The notes below the pieces were generated by a model, which did not search any database, had not been told where the DNA came from, and saw only the letters and a program-made list of their open reading frames with translations. The position numbers and the translations under genes were made by a program. A DNA stretch of 28,101 bases from Candidatus Eiseniibacteriota bacterium (GTDB lineage: Bacteria; Eisenbacteria; RBG-16-71-46; CAIMUX01; VGJL01), in contig JBHGAY010000043.1 in assembly GCA_041946735.1 (NCBI GenBank), forward strand, positions 1 through 28,101. Direction: 5' to 3'. Shown piece after piece: positions 125 through 6,271 of this stretch (position 1 is its first letter; every line of letters starts with the position of its first letter).

Positions 125-2065
125 ATGAAGCTTTGGCCGCAGCTCGCCCTCGCCTTCGCCCTCGCTCTCCTGCTCATGGCTGCCGCCCCCGCGCAGACGC
201 AGGCGCTTCAGCTCGTCGAGAACGGAGACTTCGAGCAGCCGTTCGACGCCGGGTGGAAGCAGCAGCTGGGGGGACTGGGGAGCATCGATCGCGGAACCAC
301 CTACGAAGCCGATCCCGACTACGAGGCGCACGTCTCGAAGATGGAGACCACCGGATCGAACCGCCTCTACCAGGTCATCCCGATTCCCTCGCTCGACGTC
401 CGCCTCTCGTTCCGGGCGCGGATGAATGTCCTCGCCGGCAGCGAGGCATGGGCCGCCGCGATGATCGGAATCGTCTATCTCGATGCCGAAGGCTCCATCC
501 TCGGCGAGACGCGCGCCCTCGCTCGCGCCGGCGCCTGCCCCTTCACCGACCGGCCCGACCTCCATCTGATCGCGGCGCCGGGCGACGATGCCTGGCACGA
601 GACGGTCGTTCAGCTTTCCGACGAGATGGCCTGGCTGCCCGCCGTCGATCCGATGCAGATCCGCTCGGTCCGGCTGCAGATCTGGGCCACGACGGTCGGC
701 TGCTGAGGAGAGTCTCCGGTGGCGGAGGTCTCCGCCGACGACGTGCGACTCGACTACGACTCCGACGAACCAGCGCTGCAGCCGATCGCGACCGCCTTCG
801 ACGACAACCTGGGAAACGGCGACGGCCGATGGGACGCCGGCGAGACGGCCGGCGTGCTACTGACCTTGAAGAACTTCGGAAGCGACGCCTCCGGCGTGGA
901 GGCGACCTTGGCGTGCAGCGATCCGCTCGTCACGATCCTCGACGGCGCCGCTTCCTTCGGGGACATCCCGCGCGGCGGGACGGCCGGCGGGACGGCGCCG
1001 AGCTTCACCGTCCGCGCCTCTCCGCACGCTCCCGCCGGTCACGTGGCCTCGTGCACGCTGCGCATCGTGCACGACTCGGGAGAATCGGTCTCGGCTCTCG
1101 GCTTGACGATCGGACGCCACGCCGTCTTCGTCTGGGATCCGACGTTCCTGCAGTCGACCGGGCGCGCGCTCCGGGAGATCCTGCCCTCCCTCGGCACGCC
1201 GTTCACGTTCAGCGATCTGCTGCCGCCGAATCTCGAGGATCACACGCTCCTCTTCGCGCTGCTCGGCGTCTACCCCGACAACTTCGTCGTCCGGCAGGTG
1301 TCGAGCGAGGCGACCGCGATCGAGCCGTTCTTCGGCGACGGCCATGGCGTCTACCTGGAAGGCGGGGACGTCTGGTACTTCGATCCGATCAGTATGAGCG
1401 GCTACCCGTTCGCAGCGCGCTTCGGGCTGCAGGCCGTCGAGGACGGCATGGCCGACGCCGGGATGGTGATCGGCGAGACGGGCCGGTTCACCGAAGGGAT
1501 GGCGTTCTCCTATGTGGGGGACAACGCGTATCTCGACCGCCTGCGGCCGCTCACCGCAAGCTTCACGATCCTGTCGAACGTCGCGCCCGTCTACGTCTGC
1601 GGCGTCGCTCACGACGGCGGAGACTACCGGACGGTCGGCGCGTCGATCGAGCTGGGCGGCCTCGCCGACGACGAGCCGCCGTCGACGAAGGCGGACCTGA
1701 CCGCGGCGATCCTGGTCTTCCTTCGCAACCGTGAGCCGCAGTCCGGCGCGGGCGACGCGGGCTCCGCCTCGCTCGACTTCCTCGGCCTGCCGCGCCCGAA
1801 CCCGGCGGCGCGCCGCACGACGATCTCCTATTCCCTCTCGGAGTCGAAGCGCGTCTCGATCTCGCTCGTCGACGCCGCCGGGCGGCGAGTGGCGATGGTG
1901 GTCGACGGCGCGCAGGAGGCGGGAGCGCACGTCGCGACGATCGACACCGGCCGGCTGCCGGCCGGCGTGTACTTCCTGCGATCGAACCTTGGCGAGGGTG
2001 CGGGAGCAGGCGCGGGCCGAGGCGAAGGCGCGGGAGGACAGCGAAAGCTCATCGTGACGCGGTAG
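125..2065 (+). CDS. Secreted multidomain protein, predicted selenoprotein (Sec at TGA 704-706): signal peptide, CBM-like jelly-roll, Ig-like domain, alpha/beta domain, T9SS-A/FlgD-like CTD
   Basis: SD (GAGGAGG) precedes ATG125, followed by signal peptide MKLWPQLALAFALALLLMAAAPAQTQA. ORFs 125-706 and 719-2065 are in the same frame, separated by one TGA plus 4 sense codons. The jelly-roll-like domain opens with LVENGDFE and its expected closing strand (AEVSADDVRL) lies after the TGA. A SECIS-like hairpin follows the TGA. The C-terminus reads PRPNP...ISYSL...LPAGVYFLR...KLIVTR. Confidence 0.75.
718..739 (+). promoter_or_regulatory. Putative bacterial SECIS element
   Basis: TGA, 11 nt, then GGT-GGCGG-AGGTCT-CCGCC-GAC. 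Stem 721-725/732-736 is capped by AGGUCU, the same apex as the E. coli fdhF SECIS, at a similar distance from the UGA. Confidence 0.75.
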
Positions 2066-2159: not shown

Positions 2160-2203
2160 AACCGGGGCCGCCGAGAAATGCGTTCGGCGGCCCCGGTTTT
2201 ATT
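2160..2203 (+). terminator. Intrinsic (rho-independent) terminator
   Basis: Perfect 15-bp stem AACCGGGGCCGCCGA (2160-2174) / TCGGCGGCCCCGGTT (2184-2198) with a 9-nt loop, running into TTTTATT. Confidence 0.8.
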
Positions 2204-2306
2204 GACTTCCCTGGGGGCCCGATGCCAACCTTCGACGTCGCGCCCGAACCGATCGTCGCGCATTCCGTGTGGCAGGGCTCGACGGCGTTTTCGAGGAGAG
2301 GCTCTC

Positions 2307-3254
2307 ATGGACCGGTCCGACCCGCGCCCACCCGAGCCCGAGGAGATCGACTCGGTCGATTCCTATCGGCAGGTGCTCGATCATCTCGACGAAGGGGTCT
2401 ACATGGTCGCCCCGGATCGCCGGATCGTCTACTGGAACGCGGGCGCCGAGCGGATCACCGGATACGCGCGGGCGGCGGTCCTCGGACGCTCCTGCAAGGA
2501 CGACACCCTCCGGGTGCACGTGGACGAGCGCGGCGATCCTTTGTGCCTCGCGGGCGCCTGCCCGATCGACGAGGCGATGAGGGGCGGCGCGCCGGCGGAG
2601 CAGACGCTCTACATGCGGCACGCCGACGGCCATCGCATCCCGGTGCGCGTCCGCGCGGCGCCGGTGTTCTCTCCCTCCGGCGGGATCGTGGGCGCGGTGG
2701 AGATCTTCACAGACAGCACCACGATCCTCGCCGCGAACCGGCGCCTCGACGAGCTGAACCAGCAGGCGTTCCTCGATCCCGTGACCGGCGTGGGCAATCG
2801 CCGCTACGTCGAGATGGAGATGCGCGCGATCCTCGAGGCGCACGCGCGCCACGCGATCCCGTGCGGATTCCTCTTCCTCGACATCGACCACTTCAAGCGG
2901 ATCAACGACTCCCACGGCCACGCGGTCGGCGACGGGGTGCTGCGCATGGTGGCGACGACCGTTCGCGAGGGACTGCGCGCGGGCGATTCGCTGGGACGAT
3001 GGGGGGGCGACGAGTTCCTCGTCATCCTCTCGCCGATCGGACCGAGCAGCTTGCAGGCGACCGCCGAGAAGCTGCGCGCCCTCGTCGAAGCCTCGTCGAT
3101 CAAGGAGAGGGGCAAGCCGATCCGCGTGACGATCTCGATCGGCGGGACGGCCGCGCGCGCCGGCGACACGCCGGAGATGGTGCAGGAGCGCGCCGACGTC
3201 CTGCTCTACCAGAGCAAGCAGTCGGGCCGCAACCGCGTGACGCTCGACGCCTGA
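2307..3254 (+). CDS. PAS-GGDEF diguanylate cyclase
   Basis: SD GAGGAG precedes ATG2307. PAS domain (YWNAGAERITGY). DPVTGVGNRR, DIDHFKRINDSHGHAVGD, an intact GGDEF motif and the RxxD I-site (RAGD) five residues upstream of it. Confidence 0.93.
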   Translation: MDRSDPRPPEPEEIDSVDSYRQVLDHLDEGVYMVAPDRRIVYWNAGAERITGYARAAVLGRSCKDDTLRVHVDERGDPLCLAGACPIDEAMRGGAPAEQTLYMRHADGHRIPVRVRAAPVFSPSGGIVGAVEIFTDSTTILAANRRLDELNQQAFLDPVTGVGNRRYVEMEMRAILEAHARHAIPCGFLFLDIDHFKRINDSHGHAVGDGVLRMVATTVREGLRAGDSLGRWGGDEFLVILSPIGPSSLQATAEKLRALVEASSIKERGKPIRVTISIGGTAARAGDTPEMVQERADVLLYQSKQSGRNRVTLDA

Positions 3255-3284: not shown

Positions 3285-4751
3285 CTACCACCCCGCCATC
3301 GGCGCGCCCATCCCCATCGCTCCGCTCGCCAGCGCGATCAGCGGCGCCGGGTAGATCCCGAAGAAGAGGACGACGAGCGCCAGCGCGAGGATCGCCGCCC
3401 ATGCCCACGGCGAGGACGGACGCTGCGCGAGCGCCGCCGGGGCCGCCGCGCCGGCTTCCCGCGTCGCGTACAGCGTGACGAGCACCCGCACGTAGTAGTA
3501 GGCAGAGATCCCGCTCGCCACGACCGCCAGGAGGACGAGCGTCCAGAGTCCCGCCCGGACTCCGGCGCCGAAGATGTAGAACTTCGCGACGAAGCCGGCC
3601 GTGAGCGGGATCCCGACCAGCGAAACCATCGCCAGCGCGAGGACGAAACCGGCCAGCGGCCGCTCGCGCCCGAGGCCGCGCAGGTCTTCGATCTCCTGCA
3701 CCTCGCGTCCCGGCGTGGAGAGGACCGCGATCACGCCGAACGCGGCGAGGATGGTCGCGAAGTAGGAGACGAGATAGAAGCCGAACGCCCCGAAGCCCAC
3801 CTCGCCGCCCGCGAGGAGCGGGATCGTCAGGTAGCCCATGTGCGCGATCGAGGAGTAGGCGAGCAGCCGCCGGAGGTTGCGCTGGCGCAGCGCGAGCAGG
3901 TTCCCCCCGAACATCGTCGCGACGCACAGCGCCGTCAACAGCAGGCGCGCCGGCGGGTCGGAGGCGAGGTCGAGGTCGGAGGCGAGGCGGAAGAGGAGGG
4001 CAAAGATCGCGCCCTTCGATCCGCTCGCGATGAGCGCGGTCGCGGGCGGCGGCGCCCCTTGATAGACGTCGGGCGACCACATGTGGAACGGGACGAACGC
4101 GAGCTTGAATCCGAAGCCGACGATCACGAGGGCGAGGCCGATGCGCGCCAGGCCGTTCATTCCCCCCGCCTCCTCGAACGAGCGCCCGAGGCCGGCGAAG
4201 TCGAGGTGGCCGGAGCCGGCGTAGAGCAGAGCGATGCCGTAGAGCAGAAACGCCGACGAGGCGGCCGCGAGCACCAGGTACTTGATCGCCGCCTCCAGCG
4301 ACGCGCGGCGCAGGCGGGTGAAGCCGACCAGCCCGTAGAGCGAGACGGTGAGCGTCTCGAGCCCCAGGAAAAACGTGGCGAAGTGCATGCTCGCCGCGGC
4401 GACCGCCATCCCGAGGACGGCGAAGAGGACGAGAATGTGGAAGCGGTCCTCACGTTCCGCGCGACCACGGAAGTAGTCGCGAGCGATCAGGATCGTCGCG
4501 AAGCCGGCCGCGAAGAGGAGCCCCATCCAGAAGAGCGATACGCCGTCGATCGCGAGGAGCCCCGCGACCTCGCGGGGGGCCTCGGCACGCGCGGCGAAGA
4601 TCGAGACGAACGCGGCGGCGAGCGTGGCGAGCGAAAGCGCGGCGATCGCCGCCGGGCGCCGCAGGAACGCGGAGACGACGAGAAGGACGGTCGCCCCATA
4701 GCCCAGGATCAGCAGCGGGAGCAGCGCGCGGGCATCGACGGAGCCGATCAT
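3285..4751 (-). CDS. nuoN: NADH-quinone oxidoreductase subunit N
   Basis: EAAIKYLVL, GFKLAFVPFHMWSPDVYQGAP, RLLAYSSIAHMGY. The ATG at 4751 overlaps the nuoM stop (ATGA). Confidence 0.95.
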   Translation of the reverse strand: MIGSVDARALLPLLILGYGATVLLVVSAFLRRPAAIAALSLATLAAAFVSIFAARAEAPREVAGLLAIDGVSLFWMGLLFAAGFATILIARDYFRGRAEREDRFHILVLFAVLGMAVAAASMHFATFFLGLETLTVSLYGLVGFTRLRRASLEAAIKYLVLAAASSAFLLYGIALLYAGSGHLDFAGLGRSFEEAGGMNGLARIGLALVIVGFGFKLAFVPFHMWSPDVYQGAPPPATALIASGSKGAIFALLFRLASDLDLASDPPARLLLTALCVATMFGGNLLALRQRNLRRLLAYSSIAHMGYLTIPLLAGGEVGFGAFGFYLVSYFATILAAFGVIAVLSTPGREVQEIEDLRGLGRERPLAGFVLALAMVSLVGIPLTAGFVAKFYIFGAGVRAGLWTLVLLAVVASGISAYYYVRVLVTLYATREAGAAAPAALAQRPSSPWAWAAILALALVVLFFGIYPAPLIALASGAMGMGAPMAGW

Positions 4752-6271
4752 CGCCCCTCCTCCCCCGCCTCCGCCTCGACGCGCCAGATCGTCGCCGGCT
4801 CGCCGCCGCCGCGCAGCATGCGGCCGACCGCGTCCACCGGCTCGCCCGATGCCCGCAGGACCGGGGCCGGATGGAGGCCGAGCCAGATCAGGAGCGCCGC
4901 GAGCACGCCGAGCATCGCGACCTCGCGCGCGCCGAGGTCGGGAATCTTCCATCCCTCCCGGTTGGGACCGAAGAACGCCGCGTGCACGAGCCGCAGCGAG
5001 TAGATGACCGAGACGACGAAGCCCAGGGTGCCGAGCGCCGCGGCGAGCGGGCTCACCTGGAAGGTCCCGAGGAGGACGAGCAACTCCGCGACGAAGTTCG
5101 CGAGGCCCGGCAGCCCGAGCGAGGCGAGAGCGAAGAAGAGGCTGAAGCCGCCCAGGCGGGGCGCGACGGTCCACAGTCCCCCGAGGCGCGAAAAGTCCCT
5201 CGTGCCGCATCGTTCCTGCACGATCCCGGCGACGACGAACAGGGCGCCGGTCGAGAGGCCGTGGGCGATCATCTCCATCACCGCTCCGCGGAGCGCGAGC
5301 GGCGTGCCGGCGAACACGCCGAGCAGGACGAACCCGAGGTGGCTCACACTCGTGTAGGCGACGAGCCGCTTCAAGTCCGACTGGGGATAGGAAAGGAGCG
5401 CGCCGTAGAGGATCCCCGCCACGCCGAGCGCCATCGCGACCGGAGCGAACTGGGCCGCGGCGTCGGGGAACAGCGGGACGAGGAACCGCAGGAAGCCGTA
5501 GCCGCCGGTCTTCAGCATGATCCCGGCCAGGATGACGCTGCCGGCCGTGGGGGCCTGCGTGTGCGCGTCGGGCAGCCACGAGTGGATCGGCACGGCGGGG
5601 AGCTTGACCGCGAGTCCGACGAAGAAGCCGAGCATCAGGCCGAACGCGAGGCCCGGCGGCAGAGGGGTGCCGATCAGCTCCGGGAGGTCGAAGGTGAGCG
5701 CCCCGGTCGCGCGCCAGTGGGCGATCGCGATCCCGAGGATCGCGGCGAGCATGAACAATCCGCCGAGGAATGTGAAGACGAAGAACTTGATCGCCGCCTT
5801 CACGCGGTCGCCGTACCCCCACAGCCCGATCAGGAAGTACATCGGGACGAGCATCAGCTCCCAGAAGAAGTAGAAGAGGAAGAGGTCGAGGGCGAGAAAG
5901 ACTCCCGCGATGCCGGCGAGGAGGAGCAGGAGGGAACCGTGGAACGCTCCGGCCCGCTCGTGCACCTGGTGCCAGCTCGCCGCCGAAGCGATCGCGCCGA
6001 GCAGCCCCGTCAGGAGGACCAAGAGAAGCGAGAGCCCGTCCATCCCGAGGTGGTAGCTGATCCCGAACGGCGCGACCCACGCGGCGCGCTCGTCGATCGT
6101 GAAAGGGATCCGCCCGCCGGCGGCCCCGAGCCACGCGGCGAGGGCGAGGACGACGACCGCCGAGGAGGCGGCCAAGGAGATCCAGGAGGCGGCGCGCGGC
6201 GAGCGCCGCCCGGCGATCCAGGCGAAGGGCGCCGCGAGGGCGGGAACGGCGTAGATCAGGGTCAGCGTCAT
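4748..6271 (-). CDS. nuoM: NADH-quinone oxidoreductase subunit M
   Basis: FYFFWELMLVPMY, VKLPAVPIHSWLPDAHTQAP, LKTGGYG. ATGA overlap with nuoL. Confidence 0.95.
   Translation of the reverse strand: MTLTLIYAVPALAAPFAWIAGRRSPRAASWISLAASSAVVVLALAAWLGAAGGRIPFTIDERAAWVAPFGISYHLGMDGLSLLLVLLTGLLGAIASAASWHQVHERAGAFHGSLLLLLAGIAGVFLALDLFLFYFFWELMLVPMYFLIGLWGYGDRVKAAIKFFVFTFLGGLFMLAAILGIAIAHWRATGALTFDLPELIGTPLPPGLAFGLMLGFFVGLAVKLPAVPIHSWLPDAHTQAPTAGSVILAGIMLKTGGYGFLRFLVPLFPDAAAQFAPVAMALGVAGILYGALLSYPQSDLKRLVAYTSVSHLGFVLLGVFAGTPLALRGAVMEMIAHGLSTGALFVVAGIVQERCGTRDFSRLGGLWTVAPRLGGFSLFFALASLGLPGLANFVAELLVLLGTFQVSPLAAALGTLGFVVSVIYSLRLVHAAFFGPNREGWKIPDLGAREVAMLGVLAALLIWLGLHPAPVLRASGEPVDAVGRMLRGGGEPATIWRVEAEAGEEGR

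Follow-up and report, generated by a model that had tools for sequence, protein, structure and literature searches.

A probable family of exported selenoproteins with selenocysteine in a carbohydrate-binding-module-like domain, recovered from split genes

Do two adjacent open reading frames (ORFs) in a draft genome of a Candidatus Eiseniibacteriota bacterium encode two proteins, or one protein in which an in-frame UGA is read as selenocysteine (Sec, U)? The question arises in the 28,101-nucleotide (nt) stretch of DNA analysed here (the window), which is contig 38 of 72 in a 4.89-Mb draft assembly of 94.8% completeness; all positions below refer to the whole window and its forward strand. ORF 125-706 (193 amino acids) and ORF 719-2065 (448 amino acids) lie in the same frame, and the sole stop between them is the TGA at 704-706. 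Read through this codon, they form a single coding sequence at 125..2065, with 646 codons followed by TAG and Sec at codon 194; homologs read through the same column. The junction of the 646-residue read-through protein is ...ATTVGC-U-GESPVAEVSADDVRL.... A preliminary description, made from the letters of the window, had proposed exactly such a protein joined by UGA=Sec, and the common frame, the single TGA and the preservation of this column in 80 of 80 homologous sites bear the proposal out. We conclude with high confidence that 125-2065 is one selenoprotein gene with a Sec insertion sequence (SECIS) at 720-737.

The codon itself is strictly conserved. Homologous sites from the window's own phylum, from candidate division WOR-3 and from metagenomes were read base by base, and the alignment column of the window TGA (704..706, Sec194) contained TGA in all 80; neither TAA/TAG nor a frame change was found at this column among them, a pattern far beyond chance. 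When 40 relatives were searched in six frames with the read-through sequence as query, 24 further places matched the N-terminal domain at 35-44% identity, each with exactly one in-frame TGA. When the N-terminal domains of 25 genes were aligned, the TGA was confined to a single column. Residues invariant in this alignment (N33, E37, W44, R56, D63, D65, E67, G77, L81, Q83, W109, C138, W157, C193, U194, G195, A200, V202, A204 and D205) lie on both sides of the TGA, so that conservation runs on past the stop. The homologs thus keep a TGA at codon 194 within a domain conserved on either side of it, as the preliminary description had anticipated.

Profile scans extended this picture. In the own phylum (206 genomes, including one flagged as unpublished, which gave no match) 29 places were found in 13 genomes, all 29 with exactly one in-frame TGA, and no one-piece form of the family was detected in these genomes at E 1e-8. 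A scan of WOR-3 gave 264 places in 107 of 272 genomes; among the 150 places listed, 148 had one TGA, one had two and one had none. Ten WOR-3 loci of 38-44% GC, found with a tight six-row WOR-3 alignment, all carried the TGA at the column, in the motif HTC-U-GASQLAKVFADD, and their read-through products of 636-655 residues had the architecture of the window protein. The same column held TGA in 26 of 26 metagenome loci examined. Copies are often arranged in tandem, several genomes having five to nine.

The residues flanking the codon are informative as well. Cys193 (701..703), which immediately precedes Sec in the GCUG of the window protein, is replaced by Gly in 24 and by Thr in nine of the 80 sites and retained in 47, so a Cys next to Sec (the CU pair) is not universal in the family. 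The codon directly 3' of the TGA specifies Gly in 74 of the 80 sites and does so with all four Gly codons (GGG, GGC, GGT and GGA), which indicates protein-level selection directly past the TGA. As judged from these alignments, selection on the protein continues across the codon.

Such conservation bears directly on the possibility that the TGA is a true stop and the locus holds two genes, one for a secreted 193-residue protein and one for a 448-residue protein with a sorting tail. Gene callers do split the family in this way: in the protein database it is represented by pieces, with 33 clusters of 183-199 residues corresponding to N-terminal fragments. Of the 32 clusters read, 27 have as their very last residue the Cys that precedes the stop, and several clusters are annotated as hypothetical proteins from candidate division WOR-3. 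The second ORF could also begin at a GTG at 719. However, two independent genes would leave several features unaccounted for: across the 80 sites the frame never shifts and no stop other than TGA occurs, the Gly codon straight after the TGA is under protein-level selection, no start codon ahead of AEV and after the TGA is conserved among the homologs, the second part would bear a secretion tail without a signal peptide, and the fold described below needs a strand encoded 3' of the TGA. We therefore consider the two-gene arrangement extremely improbable. A word-index search with the whole protein gave one match only, confined to the tail, and one with the N-domain profile against longer proteins also gave one; in a representative search C-terminal-domain matches dominated, and the sole N-domain relative was the window's own fragment.

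Because the assembly is a draft in 72 contigs, the TGA might have been introduced in error during sequencing or assembly; it might also be a nonsense mutation private to this strain, in a gene undergoing decay. Among Logan contigs, one 1025-nt piece from a run of a different study covers 125-1051 and is identical to the window at 704-706; its two differences fall at 474 and 516. (Run X1 was left out as support, as it may be the source of the window itself; among the runs holding the sequence, none of RNA was listed.) This independent contig, together with the TGA in 80 of 80 relatives, refutes an error or private mutation, to which we assign next to no probability.

A second layer of conservation lies in the nucleotides 3' of the TGA, where four or five codons are followed by GCG GAG GUC UCC GCC. 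The third positions of GCG GAG GTC TCC are 100% invariant in 39 sequences, compared with 33-62% for most other codons. RNAalifold, unprompted, returned a seven-pair hairpin with the loop GGUC. In the window this SECIS occupies 720..737 (pairs 721-726/731-736 plus U720-G737, with the loop at 727-730) and overlaps the codons for AEVSA. Over 54 sequences all 324 cells of the six inner pairs were paired, with compensatory double changes at three of the pairs (GC45/CG8/UG1, GC49/AU5 and GC32/AU18/GU4). The covariation score was 0.308 versus 0.145 in shuffles, none of 500 shuffles reaching 0.308, and when the partner columns were slid as a control only 21-63% of cells were paired. Across the 80 sites the six pairs were present in all 80, with ten stem variants, each fully paired; the apical loop was GGUC in 79 and AGUU in one, and it started 20 nt 3' of the UGA in 48 sites and 17 nt in 32. 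In the protein the covariation surfaces as E..S, E..F, K..F and R..L in AEVSA, AKVFA and ARVLA. The strand AEVSA is so invariant because a double constraint acts on it, as protein and as RNA hairpin. Uniformity of the SECIS is unusually high, and a simple search for a UGA with a GGUC loop, closed by six pairs, that starts 17 or 20 nt further on would retrieve the family.

The preliminary description had noted a SECIS-like hairpin after the TGA. A hairpin is present, and the conserved element is the small one with the GGUC loop rather than a longer, window-specific one. The minimum-energy fold of the window prefers a longer hairpin that begins 1 nt after the UGA and is specific to the window; this was probably the hairpin seen earlier. 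In the window at 707-733, pairing is also possible between GGAGAGUCUCCG, immediately 3' of the UGA, and CGGAGGUCUCC, which forms the 3' half of the SECIS; this alternative excludes the conserved hairpin, and the WOR-3 copy L051 folds into a comparable alternative pairing. An Rfam scan of the window gave no match; we know of no bacterial SECIS model in Rfam, so this null scan says little.

The hairpin resembles that of Escherichia coli fdhF, where, in the K-12 record, the TGA is followed by 15 nt and then GCA-GGUC-UGC, placing the loop 18 nt after the UGA. Both systems have an in-frame UGA followed by a hairpin within the coding sequence whose loop is GGUC, at a spacing of 17 or 20 nt in the present family, and the G and U of the fdhF loop are contacts of SelB; a bulged U is also known from the fdhF SECIS. 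The two systems differ in the stem, which is GCGGA/UCCGC here and GCA/UGC at the top in fdhF, and in the host proteins, which are unrelated. The Sec-insertion mechanism here would be the ordinary bacterial one. Because the loop matches that of fdhF, the SECIS may work in E. coli, and the prediction would then be directly testable.

The genome to which the window belongs is equipped for this mechanism. A search for the Sec machinery, suggested by the preliminary description, found all of its components above curated cut-offs: selA (479 bits), selB (349 bits, model positions 2-575), tRNA-Sec (72 bits) and selD (388 bits), the last being of the Sec type with an in-frame TGA in the motif AACAGUASK. 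Across the window's phylum selB is nearly universal and many matches cover the GTPase part only, so that selB does not discriminate there; a full-length selB was present in five of five WOR-3 genomes tested. Among the 272 WOR-3 genomes the family occurred in 101 of 122 with selA versus 6 of 150 without it, an association that is overstated because related genomes are not independent and whose p-value we give no weight. In six WOR-3 genomes a family gene lies about 0.3-10 kb from selA (G336:C137:7843-10114, G338:C1:1643022-1647900, G323:C48:44475-52598, G367:C37:1380-8638, G364:C59:75237-85200 and G352:C233:4818-16665). In G336 the gap between family gene and selA is 314 nt on the same strand, and in G338 the family gene adjoins selA-selB. 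As linkage between the family and the genes for Sec insertion, this proximity is weak.

These data also bear on whether the UGA could be recoded other than as Sec, either by hairpin-stimulated near-cognate read-through (Trp, Cys, Gly or Arg) or by a reassignment of UGA. Downstream hairpins can stimulate read-through in other systems, which provides a precedent, and we infer the selenium at residue 194 from sequence comparison rather than from direct observation. Against near-cognate read-through, the GGUC loop and its spacing match the SelB-dependent fdhF element, and the family tracks selA in WOR-3. Against reassignment, the selA and selB matches contain no internal stops, and UGA does terminate family genes, in two of the ten WOR-3 loci (the true stops of the other eight being TAA or TAG) and in several high-GC loci. 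Recoding to an amino acid other than Sec is thus very unlikely.

Several observations, in addition to the inflated association and the indirect view of selenium just described, count against a selenoprotein gene and have to be set beside the evidence above. Single-sequence folding of the window was not significant (z -0.41 to -1.78), and the SECIS claim is therefore carried by the comparative data only. Six family-bearing WOR-3 genomes gave no selA at E 1e-40, and five of these, all but G429, were examined more closely. In G350 and G427, tRNA-Sec was found at 75 and 72 bits and pieces of selA lay at the ends of contigs, as would be expected from gaps in the assembly. G333 had a borderline tRNA-Sec at a contig end, and in G365 no tRNA-Sec above the cut-off was found. 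The near-complete WOR-3 genome G338 (2.38-Mb contig) has a full selB, only residues 330-447 (the last 118) of selA and no tRNA-Sec over the cut-off, yet contains two family genes with the TGA; it may represent a lineage losing the Sec trait, or a misassembly. The region of G338 that holds these genes is L108 (G338:C1:1640000-1652000).

Homologs with Cys in place of Sec, which are usual for selenoproteins, are very rare here, and this too stands on the contrary side. Only two one-piece homologs were found, L067 and P0153. L067 reads ...DTAETS-C-PPPF..., and its closest fragment, P0180 (57% identical), ends ...DTAGAS and then a stop. The Cys of L067 thus aligns with the stop of P0180, which is known from the protein only and so is not known to be TGA. 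A metagenome scan for P0180 DNA yielded relatives of at most 45% identity and not P0180 itself, leaving the Sec/Cys pairing with L067 unproven. In P0153, ...DTTDGC-A-EGHC..., the column is Ala and a Cys follows five residues on; the fragment P0177 ends ...DTTDGC and then a stop, where P0153 reads on.

What kind of domain, then, would carry the Sec? Residues 25-225 were modelled with AlphaFold2 from a 44-row alignment, in which Sec is model residue 170. The model is an all-beta sandwich with a predicted local distance difference test score (pLDDT) of 95 and a predicted template modelling score (pTM) of 0.89, and its final long strand (model 175-187, protein 199-211) lies 3' of Sec. Its closest structure matches were 5w6h (Z 15.2), 8xmz (Z 14.8) and 2zew, a carbohydrate-binding module (CBM) of family 16 (Z 13.5), followed by 4d0q (Z 13.2), CBM61 (Z 11.7) and 4bj0 (CBM4-2, Z 11.4). 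The CBM matches comprised 133-145 aligned residues with a root-mean-square deviation of 2.3-3.2 and 13-22% identity, and the alignments reach model residue 188-193 and thereby include the post-Sec strand; the matches at Z 15.2-13 span model residues 2-189. The Sec-bearing module is accordingly assigned to residues ~28-212 (206..760), from LVENGDFE to the last strand AEVSADDVRLDYD. The earlier suggestion that a CBM-like fold is completed only by read-through agrees with this model, in which the last strand AEVSADDVRLDYD comes after Sec and the whole sandwich matches CBMs.

The N-terminal domain is thus predicted to be a CBM-like sandwich, sharing the galactose-binding-domain-like fold of CBM16, CBM4, CBM61, the CBM 8xmz, which binds porphyran, and the module at the C-terminus of the phage tailspike 5w6h. 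It starts with NGDFE and has ...DDV.L in the last strand, both typical of CBM_4_9. No family member reaches the Pfam cut-off, and sequence identity to these modules is 13-22%. The window protein did not match PF02018 (CBM_4_9) at E up to 1, and the WOR-3 member L051 was the sole one with a sub-threshold match (18.3 bits, below the cut-off of 25.9). To our knowledge no such carbohydrate-binding module carries Sec.

The placement of the UGA between the signal-bearing and the tail-bearing parts raises the possibility that both products are made, with partial decoding of the UGA and the selenium supply setting the ratio of truncated to full-length protein. In bacteria, release factor 2 and the insertion of Sec compete with each other, which would allow such an outcome. 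The 193-residue product, however, would lack the last strand of the sandwich, and a stable function for it is unlikely. We regard the making of both products as unlikely; it would in any case add to a selenoprotein gene at 125-2065 and not replace it.

Cys residues that might act together with Sec are found in most of the family. Cys138 (536..538), in a CPF/CPW motif, is invariant in the 25-sequence alignment, and members with Cys before Sec also have this CPW Cys. In the subfamily with GGU, SGU or GTU at the site, the Cys at the C138 position is often missing; it is kept as YCNW/YCTW in P0182, L061, L062, L063, L065 and L071, and another Cys of this subfamily lies in an S-T-C-W-P motif beside the invariant Trp109. 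From these alignments, nearly every member read keeps at least one Cys that would be able to pair with Sec, less clearly so in L077 and L076. The latter two (G399:C1:486183-489731 and G388:C27:1-3487) are divergent proteins of ~220-240 residues that end soon after the Sec module; they show no sorting tail in the stretch read and have the motif ...GSGTATC-U-GLFLEAEVS....

Thioredoxin reductase has a C-terminal Gly-Cys-Sec-Gly redox centre, and the window protein, whose stretch across Sec194 is ATTVGC-U-GESPVAEVSADDVR, likewise reads G-C-U-G. By analogy, the vicinal Cys-Sec pair could form a selenenylsulfide. In contrast to thioredoxin reductase, the GCUG is internal, in a sandwich loop of an exported protein instead of the flexible C-terminal tail of a flavoenzyme; no flavoenzyme domain was found with Pfam, and 33 of the 80 sites have Gly or Thr instead of the Cys. 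Adjacent Cys-Sec is also found in the catalogued CU-motif selenoproteins, namely SaoC, SaoL, HgcA, MbdU, KCU-star and the Csac_0668-type 2Fe-2S protein, several of which handle metals or metalloids (PMC13188914). Metal or metalloid handling would by analogy be one possible role here. The domain types of those families are different, and their NCBIfam models (release 20.0; NF040734, NF040728, NF040863, NF045648, NF033934 and others) did not match the window protein at E up to 1, where the only NCBIfam matches were T9SS-tail-related models (T9SS, type IX secretion system) and one weak peptidase model.

The remainder of the protein is consistent with export. The N-terminus MKLWPQLALAFALALLLMAAAPAQTQA is signal-peptide-like as judged by eye, with a putative signal peptide at residues 1-27 (125..205; ...APAQTQA and then LQLVENG), and a similar hydrophobic N-terminus is present in 25 of 25 aligned homologs. 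At the other end, a T9SS type A sorting domain spans residues 558-623 (1796..1993), with PF18962 at 31.3 bits (cut-off 27) and TIGR04183 at 30.5 bits (cut-off 23). These scores confirm the T9SS-A/FlgD-like tail that had been proposed for the downstream part, and Pfam and NCBIfam scans of the window protein gave no family match other than this sorting domain. Between the two ends, residues 215-545 were modelled at pLDDT 90 as an immunoglobulin (Ig)-like beta-sandwich (residues ~218-328, 776..1108; strands 4-114 of a model whose residue 1 is protein 215) and a class-I glutamine-amidotransferase (GATase1)/ThuA-like alpha/beta domain (residues ~332-536, 1118..1732; model residues 118-322, Z 17.8 to 2gk3 and 16.6 to 3rht). 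No conserved Cys was seen at the usual nucleophile position, and the invariant alignment columns suggest that the GATase1-like domain is probably not an amidotransferase.

The protein resembles T9SS type A cargo of the Fibrobacteres-Chlorobi-Bacteroidetes (FCB) group in combining a putative signal peptide with a C-terminal PF18962/FlgD_ig-type sorting domain, and differs from it in having no recognised catalytic domain and in the Sec borne by its N-terminal module. Other T9SS cargo proteins carry the Ig plus GATase1-like block too, there following S8 subtilases and a C25 peptidase. The Sec module, for its part, heads several kinds of protein, all with the sorting tail, among them the window type of about 630-650 residues, an architecture of ~735 residues in which two Ig-like repeats are combined with a MAM/Reelin-B-like domain, and a minimal one of 317 residues with only the Sec module and the tail. 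L046 (G009:C14:163000-166500), from a genome without the Sec module, is a C-terminal-only match (query 394-639) with one in-frame TGA.

The preliminary description did not recognise the protein as a described family, and our searches lead to the same view. Neither Pfam nor NCBIfam contains a model that covers the Sec domain. A May 2026 review lists 119 prokaryotic selenoprotein families or subfamilies in its Table 1, where no row has this fold, tail or motif context (PMC13188914). The searched passages of deep-Sep (PMC12013277) and BSepDB (PMC13326102) mention nothing secreted or carbohydrate-related, and a search of the open-access literature gave nothing on selenoproteins of WOR-3, selenoproteins with type IX secretion/T9SS or selenoproteins in carbohydrate-binding modules. 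This is apparently a new, large and uncatalogued selenoprotein family present in at least two bacterial phyla.

Genes next to the family were inspected as well. In the window, the next downstream ORF (2178-3254, forward strand) is like a PAS-GGDEF diguanylate cyclase, with …RWGGDEFLV… in its translation. It is followed on the reverse strand by a long ORF (3285-6134) with a very hydrophobic C-terminal half that by eye resembles an antiporter-like subunit of proton-pumping NADH dehydrogenase; its length of 949 residues is probably inflated by an upstream start in GC-rich DNA. For six WOR-3 copies that are close relatives of one another, the upstream neighbour in five is an Omp28-like protein bearing a T9SS tail and the downstream neighbour in four is BNR/Sortilin-like, and no redox partner was seen near the six. 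These loci are too closely related for their synteny to mean much.

Taken together, we propose SelB-dependent Sec insertion followed by export and T9SS-type surface sorting. SelB with Sec-tRNA(Sec) would bind the GGUC-loop hairpin, and Sec would be inserted at the UGA at 704-706. The product would consist, in order, of the signal peptide, the Sec-bearing CBM-like sandwich, the Ig-like domain, the GATase1/ThuA-like domain and the T9SS sorting tail, and the signal peptide and tail would deliver it to the cell surface or the medium. Sec would occupy the loop that leads into the final sandwich strand, with Gly after it and a Cys either directly before it or elsewhere in the domain, and would be the working residue of the module. 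It would most likely serve as a selenol/selenenylsulfide redox centre with a nearby Cys or, alternatively, as a soft-metal or chalcogen ligand, in either case acting on an extracellular substrate held by the sandwich. We infer these roles solely from the comparisons above, a further point on the contrary side, and hold them tentatively, as somewhat short of an even chance.

Every member seen is split by current annotation into two 'hypothetical' ORFs, and gene counts, secretome predictions and selenoproteome sizes are consequently wrong for these phyla. Most characterised prokaryotic selenoproteins combine a thioredoxin-like fold with a redox motif (PMC13188914, section 7). The present family differs from thioredoxin-like selenoproteins in its predicted export with a surface-sorting tail, in its polysaccharide-binding-type fold and in the large number of its members. 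It is conceivable, though we would not yet favour it, that the N-terminal module represents a novel kind of selenium-dependent domain acting outside the cell. In this view Sec in a loop has converted a sandwich of sugar-binding type into a redox site or one that handles chalcogen or metal, and the module has been distributed as a movable head among many T9SS-sorted surface proteins, a genome having up to nine copies. If so, the selenoproteomes of these phyla would be much larger than catalogued, and these little-known bacteria would spend their selenium mainly outside the cell.

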